A stretch of DNA of 8,074 bases from a virus (lineage: Duplodnaviria > Heunggongvirae > Uroviricota > Caudoviricetes), in the IMG/VR virus record IMGVR_UViG_2537561710_000018; one strand, written 5' to 3'. The position numbers and the translations under genes were made by a program. Below, in pieces: positions 1,461 to 8,074 of this stretch (positions are counted from its first letter, which is position 1; every line of letters begins with the position of its first letter). The notes under the pieces are model-generated. The model searched no databases. It was not told where the DNA came from and saw nothing but the letters and a program-made list of their open reading frames with translations.

Positions 1461-1879
1461 TTCTCAATCTCTCGATGGCGCAGTGCAGCAGATGCCAGTT
1501 GTTCAAGCTAGCACGCAAATTGTAAACCAGAATGCCAGGAAAAAACAAAACCCGCCGAAGCTGGTTGTGTGCGGTTGCGTTGAAGTCTCCTAGCCAAAGA
1601 GTAGCGGTGACCACTCCCCGCCGATAATCTTAGTTGTTTAATTTCGTAAGCTAACTAGGCTAAAAGCTCTCTGTTGTCTGCCTGTTGTACAATTAACAAA
1701 ATGAACAACGAACTAGATATACCAACGCCAGAATGGTGCAACAAATCCCAAACAACACAGCAATGCAACAATAACATATGTTATTTTCCTCTCACGGGAT
1801 TCAGTCCTGAATTCTCATAAAGCTAATCTTTTTTTAAAAACATACTGTTAGATCACATGCACTTTCTTTCTTAACATCG

Positions 1880-1907
1880 TTGACTTCGCATGCGAAGCGT
1901 TTAAAAT
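1880..1907 (+). promoter_or_regulatory. Candidate sigma70 promoter of the GHKL operon with a palindromic operator-like site
   Basis: TTGACT (1880-1885), 16-nt spacer, TAAAAT (1902-1907), about 50 nt upstream of the ATG at 1960. Perfect 14-bp palindrome CTTCGCATGCGAAG (1884-1897) lies in the spacer. GAGAG Shine-Dalgarno-like element at 1950-1954. Confidence 0.4.
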
Positions 1908-1959
1908 CAACAATTTGCACTTAAGGTATTTATTTTCCCAAACACATAGAGAGTAAATT

Positions 1960-3351
1960 ATGACTGAGAACACGACTCCAACAGCAGACTTTAGTCCTAG
2001 TAAAAGATTTTTTGTAAGTATGCTAACTCGAGATATCGACTTAAACGATGCCATACTTGATCTGCTTGATAACTGCGTCGATGGGGCTTTACGTACAATA
2101 AAAGACACAAAAAAAACTTCAAAACCATATGAAGGATTTTATGCGAAACTTACGATTAATAAAGATGTCTTTATTATAGAAGACAATTGCGGAGGTATCC
2201 CTAAAAGCTTCCGAGAATATGCTTTTAAAATGGGACGACCCCATCAAAAAGAAGAAGAAAATGAAGGCACCGTTGGCGTCTATGGTATTGGTATGAAAAG
2301 AGCCATTTTTAAAATGGGTAGAGATTGCTCAATACAATCGAATAATCCCGATGGCGCATTCACTGTAGATATAACACCTGATTGGATCGATGGTGATGGT
2401 TGGAAAATACCGATGCACGAGAGTGACTATGATAACAAAAATCCAACAGGCACAACTATAGAGATAAAAAAACTCCATTCTAATGTGGCACAAAAATTTA
2501 ATGAGAGCACATATCTTACTGATCTCTTTTTACAGATAAAACACTCATTGTCATTTATTATTCAAAAAGGATTTAAAATAGAATTAAATGGAGTTGTTGT
2601 TGAACATAATCCGATTAACATCATAACTGATCATTCTAAAATAGAACCATACATATATAAAGCTAAAATAGACGATGTTGATATCGATTTAGTTGTTGGC
2701 TTCTATAAAAATTTAGAAGATGACAATGATGATGTTTTAGAAAAAAGGAGTTCTGATGATGCTGGATGGACTGTCATTTGCAATGACCGCGTTGTTCTAT
2801 ATTGTGATAAGACACATCTCACAGGTTGGGGCTTTGCTAATGTACCAAGGTTTCATACCCAATTTATAGCAATTTCTGGGGTTGTTCGCTTTACCAGTAA
2901 AAACCCAGAAAAATTACCAATAACAACAACGAAACGAGGTGTCGATCTTAGTTCTACATTGTACAATGATGTACGAAATAAAATGATTGAAGGGATGATG
3001 CATTTTATTCGATTCACCAATCAGTGGAAAGGTGAGCATCTTGAAGAAGGGAAAAAATTACTTAAGTCAGCTCAGTCACATGAAGCTCAATCTTTATTTG
3101 AAATTACCCCACAATCAACTCCAGAAGATAAAAAAAATAACTGGTCCAACCCTAATAGAAACAAAAATGAGTGGCGATATACACCTAAGCTGCCTACCCC
3201 AGTAAAAAAAAGCTCTACTGTACGAATAATCTTCACCAGAGAGAAAGAAGATGTTAAAATTTTATCTAAATATTTCTTTGGACATGAAGATGCTAGCGCT
3301 TCTGATGTGGGGATGCAATGCTTTGATACGGTGATTGAAGAGGTGAAGTGA
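1960..3351 (+). CDS. GHKL-superfamily ATPase, MORC/Hsp90/MutL-like (Bergerat fold), 463 aa
   Basis: N-box DLLDNCVDG (2059-2085) matches ExxxNxxDA/G. G1 box EDNCGG (2179-2196) matches DxGxG. G2 box GVYGIGMK (2275-2298) matches GxxGxG. All in the canonical order and spacing within the first 115 residues. Confidence 0.8.
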   Translation: MTENTTPTADFSPSKRFFVSMLTRDIDLNDAILDLLDNCVDGALRTIKDTKKTSKPYEGFYAKLTINKDVFIIEDNCGGIPKSFREYAFKMGRPHQKEEENEGTVGVYGIGMKRAIFKMGRDCSIQSNNPDGAFTVDITPDWIDGDGWKIPMHESDYDNKNPTGTTIEIKKLHSNVAQKFNESTYLTDLFLQIKHSLSFIIQKGFKIELNGVVVEHNPINIITDHSKIEPYIYKAKIDDVDIDLVVGFYKNLEDDNDDVLEKRSSDDAGWTVICNDRVVLYCDKTHLTGWGFANVPRFHTQFIAISGVVRFTSKNPEKLPITTTKRGVDLSSTLYNDVRNKMIEGMMHFIRFTNQWKGEHLEEGKKLLKSAQSHEAQSLFEITPQSTPEDKKNNWSNPNRNKNEWRYTPKLPTPVKKSSTVRIIFTREKEDVKILSKYFFGHEDASASDVGMQCFDTVIEEVK

Positions 3352-4340
3352 TGTCTGGACAATACATTCCCTATCACTTAAGGCATAATAAGTCTATTGA
3401 TAGAGAGATTTTTCTCGAAAGCCTAAACCTCTTAAGCAAAAGACTAAATATTCAAGAATATACATATATAGGTTTTGGTGGTCCGATGCTTGAAGATTTT
3501 AGAATCATGCATAATCGTATCGCTCTTTCTGATATGATTTCTCTCGAAGAACAAGAGTCTACTCACATCAGACAAAAATATAATTTGCCTTATAATTGTA
3601 TTGATTGTAAGCTAATATCAGCTCATGACTTTATTCTTGATTATAGTTTTTCTAAACCATCAATAACATGGTTAGACTATGCCTCCCCGAAAAAAATACA
3701 AACGGATCTAGATGATATACACTTACTAAGTACTAAAGTAAGCTCTTTTGATATTTTGAAGGTCACCTTCCCCATAAATCCTAGTTCTTATTACCAACGT
3801 AGAGTTGGAGAAAGTTTAGATATTTTTAAAGAAGCTTTTATTAATTCATTAAAATCATTGCTTGGGAAAAAGTATCTTGATTTTAATCTTCAGATATCAA
3901 ATGCAGATCTTTCAGATCGTAAGATTAAAGCTCTTTTAATACGAATTATTACAAACGCTTTTAGATCAGCAATAGAACGTGGTCTTTCAGGACGTAAGGA
4001 TAAGATTCAGTATTACCCATTATCCTTAAATCAATATAATGATGGCAGTCATACCATGTTGACAATATCAGGTTTTTTCTCCTCAGAACAAGAATATATA
4101 GAGTTATCTAAGGCATGCGACCTTTCTAACTGGCAATTTTATTCAACAAATTGGGAAGACGTGCAAGAAATAGCAATACCAACACTAACAATTAAAGAAA
4201 AGATAAATTTAGATAGTAAACTGCCTGATAAAGAAGCATATCAGGCAGCCGCTGAAGAGTTCTCTTTAAACGAAAATGAACGGGATAACTATTATAAATA
4301 CTATAGGTTATACCCTAACTTCCAAAGAATTATGGTTTAA
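3351..4340 (+). CDS. Uncharacterised partner protein of the GHKL ATPase, 329 aa (candidate effector or specificity subunit)
   Basis: ATG at 3351 overlaps the upstream TGA (TGATG) with GAGGTG 6 nt upstream, indicating translational coupling. Same AT-rich codon usage as the ATPase gene. No nuclease or methyltransferase motif recognised; a glycine-rich IGFGGP segment lies near the N-terminus. Confidence 0.7.
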   Translation: MSGQYIPYHLRHNKSIDREIFLESLNLLSKRLNIQEYTYIGFGGPMLEDFRIMHNRIALSDMISLEEQESTHIRQKYNLPYNCIDCKLISAHDFILDYSFSKPSITWLDYASPKKIQTDLDDIHLLSTKVSSFDILKVTFPINPSSYYQRRVGESLDIFKEAFINSLKSLLGKKYLDFNLQISNADLSDRKIKALLIRIITNAFRSAIERGLSGRKDKIQYYPLSLNQYNDGSHTMLTISGFFSSEQEYIELSKACDLSNWQFYSTNWEDVQEIAIPTLTIKEKINLDSKLPDKEAYQAAAEEFSLNENERDNYYKYYRLYPNFQRIMV

Positions 4341-5459
4341 ATATTCGGGCTGTACTCTTTTATTTAATAAATTGTACAGCCCCTTTAATATATATTCAGC
4401 AACTATTGGTGACACGCTATTTCCTATTTGTCTGAAACTATGCCATTTAGTTACATGAAAGCGAAACCAATCAGGGAAGCCTTGTAATCTAGCAGCTTCT
4501 CTTGGTGTAATCACTCTTGGATGATAAGGGTGGATCGGCCTGACGGCTTGAAAGCTTCCTTTATCTCTAGCGGTTCCCGCCCTTAAAGTCGGGCAAAAAC
4601 CATTTGGATCTAATCTTGTAGATCTTGAAATTTTATCAGTTTCCCCAAAAGATAAGGAAGCATAACGCTCTTGGACGATTTTGCTATGTAATGTTCCGGT
4701 ACATCCAGATATGATATTATTTTTTAACTTAGCGATCGATTCTGTATCACCAACATTCCGAGGGATCTGCCCCCATAATTTTTCATAAAATCCCCCTTTT
4801 CGATCTTTTTTAATTGTTCGCCAACTCTCAGAGTCTGATTGCCAATTGGCATCGATAATATCTGGTAATCCATACAAAGCATCTTTTACAGTAACCGGAT
4901 CAATCATTTTAGGCATAAATACTTCATCTGAAATATCAAGCTTCAATGATTTTTTTACACCGATAAAAAAATATCTAGTTCGAATAGTTGGAGCACCATA
5001 ATCAGATGCTTTTACCTTGATGGGATCAAGAATATCATAATCACCGCTAACCAAATTAAATGCTTTATTTCTAATGCCAGAATATTTCTCTTGCATAATA
5101 CCTGGAACATTTTCTGCCAAAAAGAATAATGGCTGTAATTCTGATACTAAACGGTAGAAATGCATGTAAAGCTGATTCCTGCTATCATCAGGATTCCCCT
5201 TGCCTATTGAACTAAATCCTTGGCACGGAGGACCGCCAATAATACCATCTATGGGCATATCGTTTTTAAAAAAACCCTTAATTATTTCTGCATTTAGTAA
5301 AGAAACATCTTCTTGGACGTGCAAACTTCTTGGAAAATTAATTGCGTGAGTATTAATAGCATGTTGATCAATTTCAACTGCCATTTTAACATCAAATCCA
5401 GCACGTGCAGCACCAAGACTTAGACCTCCAACGCCAGAAAACAAATCTATTACATTCAT
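4308..5459 (-). CDS. DNA (cytosine-5)-methyltransferase, 383 aa
   Basis: Motif I DLFSGVGG (5424-5447), motif IV GGPPCQGF with catalytic Cys (PPCQ at 5220-5231), motif VI ENV (5106-5114), a variable TRD-like region, motif IX RVITPREAARLQGFPDWF and motif X GNSV, all in canonical C5-MTase order. Confidence 0.9.
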   Translation of the reverse strand: MNVIDLFSGVGGLSLGAARAGFDVKMAVEIDQHAINTHAINFPRSLHVQEDVSLLNAEIIKGFFKNDMPIDGIIGGPPCQGFSSIGKGNPDDSRNQLYMHFYRLVSELQPLFFLAENVPGIMQEKYSGIRNKAFNLVSGDYDILDPIKVKASDYGAPTIRTRYFFIGVKKSLKLDISDEVFMPKMIDPVTVKDALYGLPDIIDANWQSDSESWRTIKKDRKGGFYEKLWGQIPRNVGDTESIAKLKNNIISGCTGTLHSKIVQERYASLSFGETDKISRSTRLDPNGFCPTLRAGTARDKGSFQAVRPIHPYHPRVITPREAARLQGFPDWFRFHVTKWHSFRQIGNSVSPIVAEYILKGLYNLLNKRVQPEYLNHNSLEVRV

Positions 5460-5483
5460 ATAGTTGCAACGTCTCTTATTAGT

Positions 5484-5500
5484 TTCTATGTATTATAACA
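5484..5500 (-). promoter_or_regulatory. Candidate extended -10 promoter of the methyltransferase gene
   Basis: Minus strand reads TGTTATAAT (TGnTATAAT; hexamer at 5492-5497, TG at 5499-5500), about 30 nt upstream of the ATG at 5459. The -35 is weak (TAAAAC/TTAAAA). Confidence 0.4.
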
Positions 5501-5721
5501 CAACTGTTCTTGATGTTTTAACCCCATAAGATAACCTCATAAAGGCTATCCCTTGAAAATACCGGATCGCATAAATTTAATCTTTCAAAACTACTTGTCT
5601 ATTAATCGAGCAATTTAAGGTTGTTTTAGTCATGTCGATACCGACATAGTTAACTAAACCCATTTCATCGTCCAACAAATGGGGGTAATACACTTTGATT
5701 TATAGTCGGGTGGGTTTTTCT

Positions 5722-5757
5722 CTATCTGCCTTTGGTGTTCATGCCCAAGGCAGATAG
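5722..5757. repeat. Perfect 11-bp inverted repeat (CTATCTGCCTT, 14-nt spacer, AAGGCAGATAG)
   Basis: Arms at 5722-5732 and 5747-5757 are exact reverse complements. Located in the non-coding region at the right-hand composition transition of the island. No adjacent U-run on either strand, so not a classical intrinsic terminator. Confidence 0.5.
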
Positions 5758-5890
5758 CCTCAAGCACCCGCAGCAATTCTACTTAACTATCCTTTTCCCG
5801 CAAACCGTTTTTATCCCCAGCGGCAAATCGAATACACCACCAGCGCCACCGCCATCGCAATTCCTACCGTTGTGAATGCTTCAGGCCAGG

Positions 5891-6448
5891 TCATTGATTC
5901 ACCTCCTGCGGCGGTTCTGGTAGCGACATCCAGTGGGTTGCTTGCCTAAGATCATTACCCGGACTAACTGCTATACCTCCGCGCCGGAACGTGCCTCCGA
6001 GATAGCGTGCGGAATATATTAATGGCCCAGCCTCGCTATCGATATTCATCGAAATAAGCACGTTCTGGCTCTTTTCAGGCATTCGCTCAGTACAGCTTAT
6101 CCAGCCATCCAGAGTTATCGGAGATCTGGTTGACGTTTCCGAGATTTCCCGAAAATTGTTGGTTGACGAATTCTTATTTTCCCGAAAGTTTCCGGCCTGA
6201 AGCATGGCGACGCGGCAGGCGTTCCAGCCATCAGCATATGTTTTAGTTACACCGTCGAGATGGCAGGTAAGCAAATCCATTTCATCAGGCACTACCATTG
6301 CTATCGGCTCTGCTTCCAGTGATGCCAGCGCGATACGAAACACATTAGCCAGCAGGCTGTCTGAAGACTTGTTATCGTGCGCCGAGTCGCTCAGGAAGCC
6401 TGTGATGTATGATTTAATCTCCGCGCGTTCTCTGGTAATAGTGCTCAT
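5891..6448 (-). CDS. DUF551-like prophage protein, 185 aa
   Basis: C-terminal ATHWMSLPEPP resembles the conserved THWMPLPEPP tail recalled for DUF551 prophage proteins. E. coli-like composition; tightly packed with the upstream gene (2-nt gap). Confidence 0.55.
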   Translation of the reverse strand: MSTITRERAEIKSYITGFLSDSAHDNKSSDSLLANVFRIALASLEAEPIAMVVPDEMDLLTCHLDGVTKTYADGWNACRVAMLQAGNFRENKNSSTNNFREISETSTRSPITLDGWISCTERMPEKSQNVLISMNIDSEAGPLIYSARYLGGTFRRGGIAVSPGNDLRQATHWMSLPEPPQEVNQ

Positions 6449-6449
6449 A

Positions 6450-6668
6450 TCAGTTTTCCTTATACGGATTAATTTTATTGTGCAGTGCGCTGAATGATTC
6501 CCATGTCACATCGGTATATAGCTCAATAACTGGTTCAAATGTCCTTCCAATTATCCAGACCAGTAATAGCGGGGATATCGGTATCATCAACACTATAAAC
6601 AGAATGAAAAACAGAAACTCTGTTGTTCTGCTCTTTCGTGGGTAATTTTTTTCTAAATAATGTTTCAT
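6450..6668 (-). CDS. Small hydrophobic (predicted membrane) prophage protein, 72 aa
   Basis: ORF contains a long hydrophobic stretch (FLFFILFIVLMIPISPLLLVWIIG) consistent with a transmembrane helix; stop is 2 nt from the downstream gene start. Function unknown. Confidence 0.4.
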   Translation of the reverse strand: MKHYLEKNYPRKSRTTEFLFFILFIVLMIPISPLLLVWIIGRTFEPVIELYTDVTWESFSALHNKINPYKEN

Positions 6669-6674
6669 TTCTTA

Positions 6675-6690
6675 CCGCCCTTTCGGGCGG
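6675..6690. repeat. GC-rich hairpin (CCGCCC-TTTC-GGGCGG) just upstream of the small membrane protein start codon
   Basis: 6-bp GC stem with 4-nt loop; on the minus strand it ends 6 nt before the ATG at 6668-6666. No U-run follows on either strand. Confidence 0.4.
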
Positions 6691-6795
6691 CCTCCTGATG
6701 TTCTGAGGGTGCAGGAATCCCTCCGGTTAAGGATTTAATAAAAATCGTTTCTGATTTAAATCTTCAGTATTTAGTTGTTAGTTGGTTTATCGCCT

Positions 6796-7107
6796 TTATG
6801 CTTCAGCCTTATTTCGCAACCAGACACAAACCGGGCCATCTTCCGTATCATGAATGGAACCAATAAACCAGCCATCGCCCTCTGGTCGTTCCGGTTCCCA
6901 TGCAGAAATATCAGCATCACACGCATCAAGGTCAGCACATCCTTCATCTCTGAAGCAGAGGACGTATTGAAGATTATTTTCCTCCATCCAGGCGTTAAAC
7001 TCTTCCGTTGAAATATATTCCCGACCATCACAGAATTTTTCATATTCAGGATGTGTCCAGTAGCCATATCCGTCACGAACTACCGGCATTTCTTTAATTT
7101 CACTCAC
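6796..7107 (-). CDS. Highly acidic, Trp-rich small prophage protein, 103 aa, function unknown
   Basis: GTG start at 7105-7107 preceded by AGGAGG with 6-nt spacing. About 25 Asp/Glu against about 8 Lys/Arg by my count. Chosen over the overlapping 6771-7076 ORF because of the Shine-Dalgarno element and protein-like composition. Confidence 0.5.
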   Translation of the reverse strand: MSEIKEMPVVRDGYGYWTHPEYEKFCDGREYISTEEFNAWMEENNLQYVLCFRDEGCADLDACDADISAWEPERPEGDGWFIGSIHDTEDGPVCVWLRNKAEA

Positions 7108-7327
7108 TGTTAACCTCCTGCAACGCTACACGATACGCCTTCTTTATCCACGCCTTACTGCCATATAATTTCGTCTTCATAATAAACACACCTGCACGAC
7201 TCGCCGATATCCCCGGACAGGTTAACAGCACAGCATCCACCACACGGTTATGCTTCCGAAACTCCATTACAGTACTGCTGATAACCACCTGCCCCACCGG
7301 GCCGTAATCCTGATACAGGATTTTCAC
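7100..7327 (-). CDS. Hypothetical small prophage protein, 75 aa
   Basis: GTG start at 7325-7327 overlaps the upstream stop (GTGA), suggesting translational coupling; stop overlaps the downstream start region. No recognisable motif. Confidence 0.35.
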   Translation of the reverse strand: MKILYQDYGPVGQVVISSTVMEFRKHNRVVDAVLLTCPGISASRAGVFIMKTKLYGSKAWIKKAYRVALQEVNSE

Positions 7328-7605
7328 GCAGACACCCTCCTGTCGAAATAAACGTAGTTATTCACTATGCGCAGCGGCATGCCTAATTTTCTGGCAATTT
7401 CCCTTCTTTGCATGCCTCTCTGATGCAGTTGCCGCGCCAGCTCAATATCACGCTGAGAATATTTTGCCGACGGGTGAAAATCACCACGTAACATCATGCT
7501 GATGCCCAGCTCCCGTGCCTTCGTTCTCACTGCCGCTTCAGTTCGTCCGATAAGTGCGCCAACGCTTTTTACCTTCATCGTTCCCGCACACTGCCGGAGT
7601 ATCAT
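7324..7605 (-). CDS. Putative DNA-binding protein with two helix-turn-helix-like segments (NinH-like?), about 93 aa
   Basis: HTH-like segments GRTEAAVRTKARELGIS and RREIARKLGMPLRIVNNYV. Start placed at internal ATG 7605 (alternative 7578) because the ORF-track start at 7728 would overlap the upstream gene by about 90 nt. Confidence 0.4.
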   Translation of the reverse strand: MILRQCAGTMKVKSVGALIGRTEAAVRTKARELGISMMLRGDFHPSAKYSQRDIELARQLHQRGMQRREIARKLGMPLRIVNNYVYFDRRVSA

Positions 7606-7637
7606 GATTTCCGCCCGGCACCACGTCTTCCACCCAC

Positions 7638-8045
7638 TCACCGCTGCTGTTCTCTGGTGGCGGTAATATCCCGGAGAATATCCCGGCACTTGTTCAGCTC
7701 CCGCAGCGCGGCGCAGACTCGCTCCCACTTCTGAACCTGACCTTTTGCCCGGCGCAGCTCGCGGTTAGCCACATGCAGCGATGGTAAAATCAGACCATCC
7801 GGATGCTTTCTGGTGAACGACGGCTGTGACTGCACTGTGACCGCCACACTTTCCGTTTTTATTTCTTCCTGTGTTTCCGCTTCCCCGACTGGTAACGCAA
7901 CACCTGCTGGCTGAGGAAAGGCTTTACCATCCGTTTCCGTTATGGATGCGGCTTTCGGCTCTGCCGGTAAATCAGCGCCCGGTATGCAGTACCGAAATTT
8001 ACCGCCCTGATTCACGCGAATCAGACGCCCTTTGCTGATTGCCAT
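7638..8045 (-). CDS. Hypothetical prophage protein, 135 aa, with C-terminal predicted coiled-coil/basic region
   Basis: ORF with E. coli-like composition in the same minus-strand string. ATG at 8045 lacks a clear Shine-Dalgarno element and lies 29 nt from the window edge, so the true start may be upstream of the window. Confidence 0.4.
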
Positions 8046-8074
8046 GGCCAGTGATGAATTCGCCCGGCGGGAGG

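Follow-up and report, generated by a model that had tools for sequence, protein, structure and literature searches.

A prophage-borne trio of a MORC-like GHKL ATPase, a PF20553 methyltransferase-fold protein and a cytosine methylase, proposed as a methylation-gated defence module

Introduction

An important question raised by a compact group of genes within prophage DNA is whether they form one functional unit and, if so, what that unit may do for the prophage and its host. The group considered here lies in an 8,074-nt viral sequence (IMG/VR record IMGVR_UViG_2537561710_000018; Duplodnaviria; Heunggongvirae; Uroviricota; Caudoviricetes), which in its full length is called the window below, and it consists of genes for a GHKL ATPase, for a second protein of the PF20553 family, here called the partner, and for a C5 cytosine methylase (Dcm). 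An original prediction, made from the letters of the sequence alone, regarded the three genes as a candidate undescribed defence module. We propose that the trio is a single methylation-gated module of defence or addiction, similar to restriction-modification (R-M) systems and carried as prophage cargo, and we put the probability of this reading at roughly 55%. The genes and promoter-like sites of the cassette, with positions in the window and the basis of each assignment (ORF, open reading frame), are the following.

1880-1907, plus strand: sigma-70-like promoter, TTGACT / 16 nt / TAAAAT, about 50 nt 5' of the ATPase start (consensus scan and conservation)
1960-3351, plus strand: ATPase gene, 463 aa (six-frame ORF list and HATPase_c_3 match)
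3348/3351-4340, plus strand: partner gene, 329-330 aa (six-frame ORF list and PF20553 match)
4308-5459, minus strand: Dcm gene for the C5 cytosine methylase, 383 aa (ORF list and PF00145 match)
5492-5521, minus strand: promoter-like site, TTAAAA / 18 nt / TG-TATAAT, 5' of the Dcm start (consensus scan only)

Linkage of the three genes across genomes

We surveyed the joint occurrence of the genes by scanning GTDB genomes, one for each species, with a partner profile, which gave 103 hits, and 80 loci were retained; their neighbouring genes were assigned by our own ORF calling and phmmer, and a Dcm gene was counted when it was located within 6 kb. According to the record titles, the loci belong to Cyanobacteria, several proteobacterial classes, Bacillota, Acidobacteriota, Verrucomicrobiota, Latescibacterota, Poribacteria, Chloroflexota, Myxococcota, Planctomycetota, Bacteroidota, Chlorobi, Thermotogae and others, and most of them are chromosomal and not phage-borne. 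A homologue of the ATPase was found directly 5' of the partner at every one of the 80 loci (incomplete at a contig end in one and frameshifted in one), and a Dcm gene accompanied the pair at 67. Because of these two counts, we regard the three genes as one module rather than as an orphan methylase beside an unrelated pair. When the starts of the longest ORFs are taken, the most frequent spacing between ATPase and partner is an overlap of 4 nt (47 loci), and the divergences of the two proteins are correlated (Mantel r=0.47, p=0.002); the two genes are translationally coupled and co-evolving.

The Dcm gene is located upstream and co-directional at 28 loci, downstream and convergent, as in the window, at 22, and downstream and co-directional at 6, the rest being one gene off, and such shuffling of the methylase around a fixed pair is typical of R-M systems. 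Most of the module methylases share 50-56% identity with that of the window even across phyla, which indicates a dedicated Dcm subfamily. The most frequent additional neighbour is Vsr (26/80 loci). As a side observation, the ATPase of one locus (L017, 4126-5353) is seemingly frameshifted, being split into two overlapping ORF pieces beside an intact partner, Dcm and Vsr, and this locus may be a decaying copy.

Organization and expression of the cassette

In the window, the TGA stop of the ATPase gene (3349-3351) and the ATG of the partner gene (3351) have one base in common within the sequence TGATG at 3349-3353, a GAGG Shine-Dalgarno sequence is located about 8 nt 5' of this ATG, and the RefSeq annotation also gives a 1-nt overlap of the two genes. 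The 3' ends of the convergent partner and Dcm genes overlap by 33 nt (4308-4340). The GC content is 0.31-0.40 over about 1800-5600 and 0.45-0.57 in both flanks, which carry genes of the nin/Q region of lambdoid prophages: DUF1133 (Q-like antiterminator), YbcO, DUF1367, DUF551, DUF4014 and DUF1627. These ORFs, overlaps and GC values bear out the compact, AT-rich cassette of the original prediction, in which the ATPase and partner genes are coupled and the methylase gene converges on them with an overlapping 3' end. The region 1600-5894 is 100% identical with prophage Sp10 of Escherichia coli O157:H7 Sakai (ECs_1955/1954/1953) and with strain EDL933, and the three RefSeq gene names, in order, are "ATP-binding protein", "O-methyltransferase" and "DNA cytosine methyltransferase".

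The Dcm gene is on the same strand as the early-right operon of the phage, and the ATPase-partner operon is antisense to the early operon. This antisense operon possesses its own conserved promoter, as judged from sequence comparison: in the Klebsiella aerogenes and Enterobacter asburiae cassettes, both hexamers (-35 and -10) have persisted at an unchanged distance amid diverged sequence. The number of sites given by the promoter consensus scan in the region was not above that in shuffled sequences. Within the spacer of this promoter, we spotted by eye a perfect 14-bp palindrome, CTTCGCATGCGAAG (1883-1896), of which the K. aerogenes promoter copy retains CTTC-N6-GAAG; an inverted-repeat scan 5' of the ATPase gene found nothing, the palindrome being unspaced. 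The palindrome may be an operator or a methylation-sensitive site. Published transcript data show that the cassette is expressed from the uninduced prophage in lysogens, because transcripts of ECs1954 and ECs1955 drop 2.6- and 3.2-fold, respectively, upon exit from exponential growth (PMC2241611).

Characteristics of the three proteins

The first protein is a GHKL ATPase of the MORC type that has an S5 transducer and in which the ATP-binding motifs are intact. It matches HATPase_c_3 (E 2.9e-9, Pfam scan), and the best structural matches of its AlphaFold2 model, which was built from 26 homologues and has a predicted local distance difference test score (pLDDT) of 79, are MORC3, SMCHD1 and MORC2, the matched 266-298 residues taking in both the GHKL and the transducer domain. 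When the family profile was compared with PDB sequences, MORC3 was again the top match, although a marginal one (E 0.03), and the term MORC-like is used because the profile, too, picks this protein. The Bergerat-fold motifs D34xxxN38, D75NCGG79 and G106xxG109xG111 are invariant across 65 loci, as is the QTK-like T323-T324-K325, and the C-terminal S5-type transducer with its conserved Lys gives the protein the two-domain arrangement of MORC, MutL and topoisomerases. A transducer stretch, C274 N275 D276 R277 ... D283 ... T288 G W G291 ... P296 ... H299 Q301 F302, is strongly conserved and is located in a part of the model with low confidence. Eukaryotic MORC and SMCHD1 ATPases function in DNA-methylation-linked silencing. 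The window ATPase resembles them in its GHKL and transducer domains, for which they are the top structural matches, but it lacks their CW, coiled-coil and hinge domains, its sequence likeness to them is marginal, and its N-box has Asp in place of Glu.

The partner matches PF20553 (Methyltransf_35) from end to end, its residues 2-329 being aligned to positions 1-308 of the 309 in the profile (E 2e-89; 300.4 bits, cut-off 27). Its structure model (pLDDT 88.6) has a Rossmann methyltransferase fold that is nearest to the nucleic-acid methyltransferases Trm1, RsmD-like proteins and RlmI/RlmO, and comparison with a library of viral folds gave only generic methyltransferase matches with template modelling (TM) scores of 0.3-0.45. 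Sixteen partner residues are invariant over the 65 loci, including the N-terminal Y-H-L-R-x-N-K-x-x-x-R, the motif-II acid E66, W107/D109 of motif IV, Y229/D231 and E283; the motif-I glycines are kept in at least 90% of the sequences, and the canonical (D/N)PP(Y/F) motif is absent. The partner is, therefore, a class-I methyltransferase-fold protein that keeps E66 and D109. The original prediction called it an unknown partner; a family and a fold can now be assigned, while the lack of a functional name in databases still holds. The family comprises 2,136 clusters at 50% identity in a library of 1.84 billion proteins, and the best 150 of these are all single-domain proteins of roughly 280-380 aa, mostly 315-345. 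PDB searches with the single sequences of the ATPase and of the partner gave nothing useful. In the search of the PDB with the partner profile, HMG-CoA synthase (E 0.07) and PsbU (E about 1.2) were found and rejected as insignificant; the PsbU match hints at a helix-hairpin-helix-like C-terminus and is not taken as evidence.

The third protein is, by its sequence, a catalytically intact C5-cytosine methyltransferase. It matches PF00145 (DNA_methylase, E 2.6e-61) and the PADLOC model MTase_II (E 2e-98), its catalytic motifs PCQ, ENV, RxR and GN are invariant across the 65 loci, and its match to PDB entry 3g7u (E 1e-254) is to a structure without a described function. It is not of the host EcoKDcm type, giving 35.7 bits with PRK10458 against a cut-off of 710.

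Mobility, distribution and a natural deletion

The prediction that the trio is prophage cargo holds for several different elements, between which the cassette travels as a unit. In addition to Sp10/CP-933R, the same trio with the same overlaps is present in K. aerogenes, in a different lambdoid prophage between replication and late-regulator genes, and in E. asburiae, at a prophage end beside purB. The Pseudomonas filamentous phage PfAC20 (PP058144; locus L083, 280-3711) carries the whole module as the co-directional ORF1-3 in an accessory region beside the repressor; this phage additionally encodes a second, short cytosine methylase (ORF9, 5438-6082). The partner was found on 2 of 72,556 plasmids, and the module is thus not plasmid-associated.

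Among 5,426 complete E. coli genomes, the pair was found in 173 and Dcm in 172, all copies being chromosomal and at least 99% identical, and the cassette has been reported to be specific to O157:H7 lineage I (PMC1890555). The only incomplete trio among the 173 genomes is that of O157:H7 strain F6294 (NZ_CP038372; locus L084, 6392-6895), where a deletion took the whole Dcm gene and all but the N-terminal third of the partner, with the ATPase remaining intact. This single event fits the idea that loss of Dcm is not tolerated while the pair is functional.

Comparison with known systems

That the trio matches no named system, as had been supposed, is supported by our searches. In PADLOC-DB 2.0, the ATPase and the partner matched no family at E up to 1, NCBIfam gave nothing above its cut-offs for either, the corresponding PHROGs families are listed as of unknown function, and the names given in databases are only "ATP-binding protein", "O-methyltransferase" or "hypothetical". 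Our search of the literature gave neither a paper nor a database entry in which Dcm, a MORC-like ATPase and a PF20553 partner are named or tested as a combination, and GHKL or MORC proteins go unmentioned in a language-model defence preprint and in an E. coli defence-island paper. The window proteins belong to none of MZA, MADS, PD-lambda-5, Shedu and the HEF_HK pair, according to Pfam, PADLOC and NCBIfam; the ATPase has a faint match to MzaB (NF041932; E 0.037, 12.4 bits against a cut-off of 850), and PADLOC gave no mza match.

The nearest precedent is the set of operons in which MORC and paraMORC GHKL ATPases accompany Dcm and Vsr, which are laterally mobile and were predicted, not demonstrated, to act in R-M (Iyer, Abhiman and Aravind, 2008, PMC2292703); the original prediction cited this paper correctly. 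These operons and the window module have in common a GHKL and S5 ATPase linked to cytosine methylases and Vsr, as well as lateral mobility. The published operons, however, contain SF-II helicases, PD-(D/E)xK, HNH, TIR or fused nuclease domains, whereas the sole constant partner in the window-type module is the PF20553 protein, with no helicase or nuclease; a PF20553-type partner is not mentioned in the main text of that paper. One of the earlier groups, paraMORC3, is now classed as Shedu type I-D, a defence system that, like the proposed module, is centred on a GHKL ATPase; the anti-phage activity of VcSduA requires both its GHKL ATPase and its nuclease (PMC12137116).

Another similar arrangement is the HEF_HK (HATPase_c_3)/Response_reg_2 pair, which has C5 methylases, Vsr and HNH_2 as its neighbours (Bellieny-Rabelo et al., 2021, PMC8011034). 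In both cases a HATPase_c_3 protein is tightly linked to a small Rossmannoid partner in neighbourhoods enriched in Dcm, Vsr and HNH_2, and HNH_2 genes also adjoin some loci of the module described here. The HEF_HK ATPase differs by a further HATPase_c at its C-terminus and by an H-box-like element, and it is paired with a CheY-like protein rather than a methyltransferase-like one; a Pfam scan at E up to 1 gave no match of the window proteins to PF19191 or PF19192, the families of this pair. PD-lambda-5 is an experimentally validated, compact prophage "RM+Abi" defence that contains a methyltransferase (Vassallo et al., 2022, PMC9519451). None of the window proteins matched the PADLOC PD-Lambda-5 models, and the likeness consists in the C-terminal domain of its A protein, which is also found in an accessory GHKL gene at some loci, as described below.

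In classical type II 5-methylcytosine (5mC) R-M systems with Vsr, as in the module, an intact cognate Dcm is encoded beside an effector operon that is tightly linked to it and runs either convergently or in the same direction; Vsr is often present, both kinds of system occur on mobile elements, and the methylase is lost together with part of the effector. The window differs from them in having no recognisable endonuclease fold, its putative effector being a MORC-like motor and a methyltransferase-fold protein.

Accessory genes and flanking DNA

At other loci, genes found directly beside the module encode, among others, integrases, HNH type II enzymes, type I/III R-M and UvrD/NERD proteins, and accessory neighbours match PD-Lambda-5_A or mad2. 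A second GHKL paralogue of about 440-610 aa is located beside Dcm at 10 of the 80 loci (L011, L013, L014, L015, L018, L019, L023, L025, L031 and L035); it has the same N-box Asp as the window ATPase, its C-terminal 200 residues or so match PADLOC PD-Lambda-5_A in several copies (E down to 4e-23), and it is absent from the window. At L011, this paralogue is paired with a PF20553-like protein of its own, and an HNH_5 gene comes next. We considered whether a fourth conserved gene might supply the absent nuclease and rejected this, because HNH_5 (6/80 loci) and HNH_2 (3/80) are too rare and some of them come from a neighbouring R-M system, as at L080 with its own Dcm and Vsr.

Cyanobacterial pairs with no Dcm gene within 6 kb are L003, L005 and L009 (Scytonema/Nostoc), L006 and L008; L003, L005 and L009 share a syntenic position between NADH-dehydrogenase-like (ndh-like) genes, and unrelated genes surround other cyanobacterial pairs. 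Another Dcm-less pair, in a Myxococcota metagenome-assembled genome (L054, 239-11504), has as its neighbours helicases (SNF2 and Helicase_C, with one helicase of 1198 aa), part of an MmeI-type TRD and an MZB-domain protein, a gene set that we read as a DISARM-like island.

The right flank of the window (about 5712-8074, with the DUF551, DUF4014 and DUF1627 genes) departs from Sakai Sp10 and EDL933 past about 5895 and is 99.9% identical to other lambdoid prophages, so that the window is a mosaic joined in a repeated sok-like region; none of the eight best-matching complete E. coli records listed spans the junction 5460-5711. Just past the Dcm promoter region, a sok-like antisense RNA motif is found on the minus strand (5645-5769, hairpin 5722-5757; Rfam RF01794, E 3.9e-9), its 50.2 bits falling short of the gathering score (59), and the stretch 5712-5900 is 92-96% identical to sokW-region DNA of phage 933W and numerous Stx phages. 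Near this motif we found no intact hok-type ORF, only a hydrophobic ORF of 27 aa (5811-5894, minus strand).

Proposed function and alternative explanations

If the trio works as one R-M-like module, Dcm would label the DNA of host and prophage as self at a short sequence, and the ATPase and the partner would form a constitutively expressed complex in which the methyltransferase-fold subunit serves as a reader of DNA or of S-adenosylmethionine. The original prediction likewise had the methylase mark self DNA and the pair act against unmodified DNA, a view in keeping with the gene linkage, the association with Vsr and the one natural deletion. On unmarked DNA, the complex would drive ATP-dependent dimerisation and clamping by the MORC-like motor, and the clamped DNA would then be disabled by a catalytic site that has escaped recognition, by a host or accessory nuclease that is recruited or activated, or by clamping or silencing of a non-nucleolytic kind. 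Candidates for such a catalytic site are the invariant transducer loop of the ATPase (CNDR...D...TGWG...H-Q) and the invariant cluster of the partner (YHLRxNK...R / D109 / Y229-D231 / E283). Like other R-M systems, the module would stabilise its own prophage by post-segregational killing. Complex formation, methylation reading, ATP-driven clamping and the damaging step are inferences, in contrast to the composition, folds, conserved motifs, linkage, co-evolution, mobility and expression, which are shown.

Several points weigh against this proposal. Domain and fold comparisons detected no nuclease domain in the ATPase or the partner, and in the literature we found no experiment on phage protection, on toxicity or on the methylation motif. 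GHKL ATPases such as MORC, MutL, Hsp90 and GyrB usually have a catalytic Glu in the N-box. The N-box of the window ATPase is D34-L-L-D-N38 (window 2059-2073), with an invariant Asp at the position of this Glu, and ATP turnover may therefore be slow or switch-like. About 10 loci with adequate flanks, some of them cyanobacterial, have no linked Dcm, which indicates that an intact pair is not obligatorily lethal without an adjacent methylase. The argument from natural deletion depends on one genome within the nearly clonal set (at least 99% identity). Finally, the divergence of Dcm follows that of the pair weakly (Mantel r=0.12-0.16), and the partial correlation of partner and Dcm given the ATPase is about 0; this gives no support for a partner that tracks Dcm specificity, in a comparison of low power because most Dcms belong to one subfamily.

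Another explanation is genome maintenance or epigenetic control instead of antiviral defence: the MORC/MutL-like ATPase and the partner would cooperate with Dcm, and also with Vsr at the loci that have it, in 5mC-linked mismatch (very-short-patch) repair, in strand discrimination or in a chromatin organisation that depends on methylation. The prominence of Vsr among the neighbours, a core without nuclease, and Dcm-less cyanobacterial copies amid housekeeping genes, three of them in synteny between ndh-like genes, are consistent with this explanation. We nevertheless consider it unlikely, because two thirds of the loci, the window included, have no Vsr, temperate phages carry the module and integrases, R-M or DISARM-like genes adjoin it, and the distribution is patchy and horizontal, reaching only 172 of 5,426 E. 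coli genomes and being lineage-specific even within O157. The core without nuclease would also suit a system of DNA (hyper)modification or anti-restriction, in which DNA is modified by Dcm and by the partner alike, the ATPase serves as a loader or confers processivity, and nothing is attacked, the modification shielding phage and host DNA from other restriction systems. For such a role speak the partner fold near nucleic-acid methyltransferases with its conserved motif-II and motif-IV residues, the frequency of nin-region methylases in lambdoid phages, and the location of Dcm on the strand of the early-right operon. The ATPase-partner operon, however, is antisense to the early operon, has its own conserved promoter and is expressed in uninduced lysogens, most of the 80 loci are chromosomal and outside phages, and the partner does not have the canonical (D/N)PP(Y/F) motif; Vsr and the R-M-type shuffling of gene order, moreover, suit the classical logic of a methylase plus an effector. 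On balance, we judge a purely modifying role to be quite improbable.

The original prediction had itself offered another alternative, an orphan phage methylase located by chance beside an independent two-gene abortive-infection or toxin-like module. The roughly 10 pairs without linked Dcm, and the convergent Dcm gene with its own promoter-like site, would be expected from such independence, but linkage over the 80 loci largely refutes it: the Dcm gene is near the pair at 67 of them in many phyla, mostly as a member of one subfamily, the E. coli trio is always together with the sole loss of Dcm having also cut the partner, and the trio moves intact between unrelated prophages. We therefore regard chance neighbourhood as very improbable, and the methylation-gated, R-M-like module is the reading that we propose.

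Significance

The general theme of MORC and paraMORC ATPases in Dcm/Vsr operons taken as R-M systems was predicted in 2008, and what is described here is an unnamed, widespread combination with a PF20553 partner. It is present and expressed in EDL933 and Sakai, whose genomes are references for a major pathogen, its Dcm component has a crystal structure (3g7u), and by record titles the partner family extends over more than 12 phyla, yet the module has no name or assigned function, and its two core proteins have no match in a standard defence database. Even if the restriction reading is false, the near-constant linkage of a dedicated Dcm subfamily to the ATPase-partner pair still requires explanation. 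If the module does restrict unmethylated DNA, it would represent a widespread type of methylation-based immunity whose effector is a MORC-like motor with a methyltransferase-fold protein and without a known nuclease, and it would offer, in bacteria, an experimentally tractable way to study the reading of DNA methylation by MORC ATPases, which has been in question since the operon prediction of 2008.

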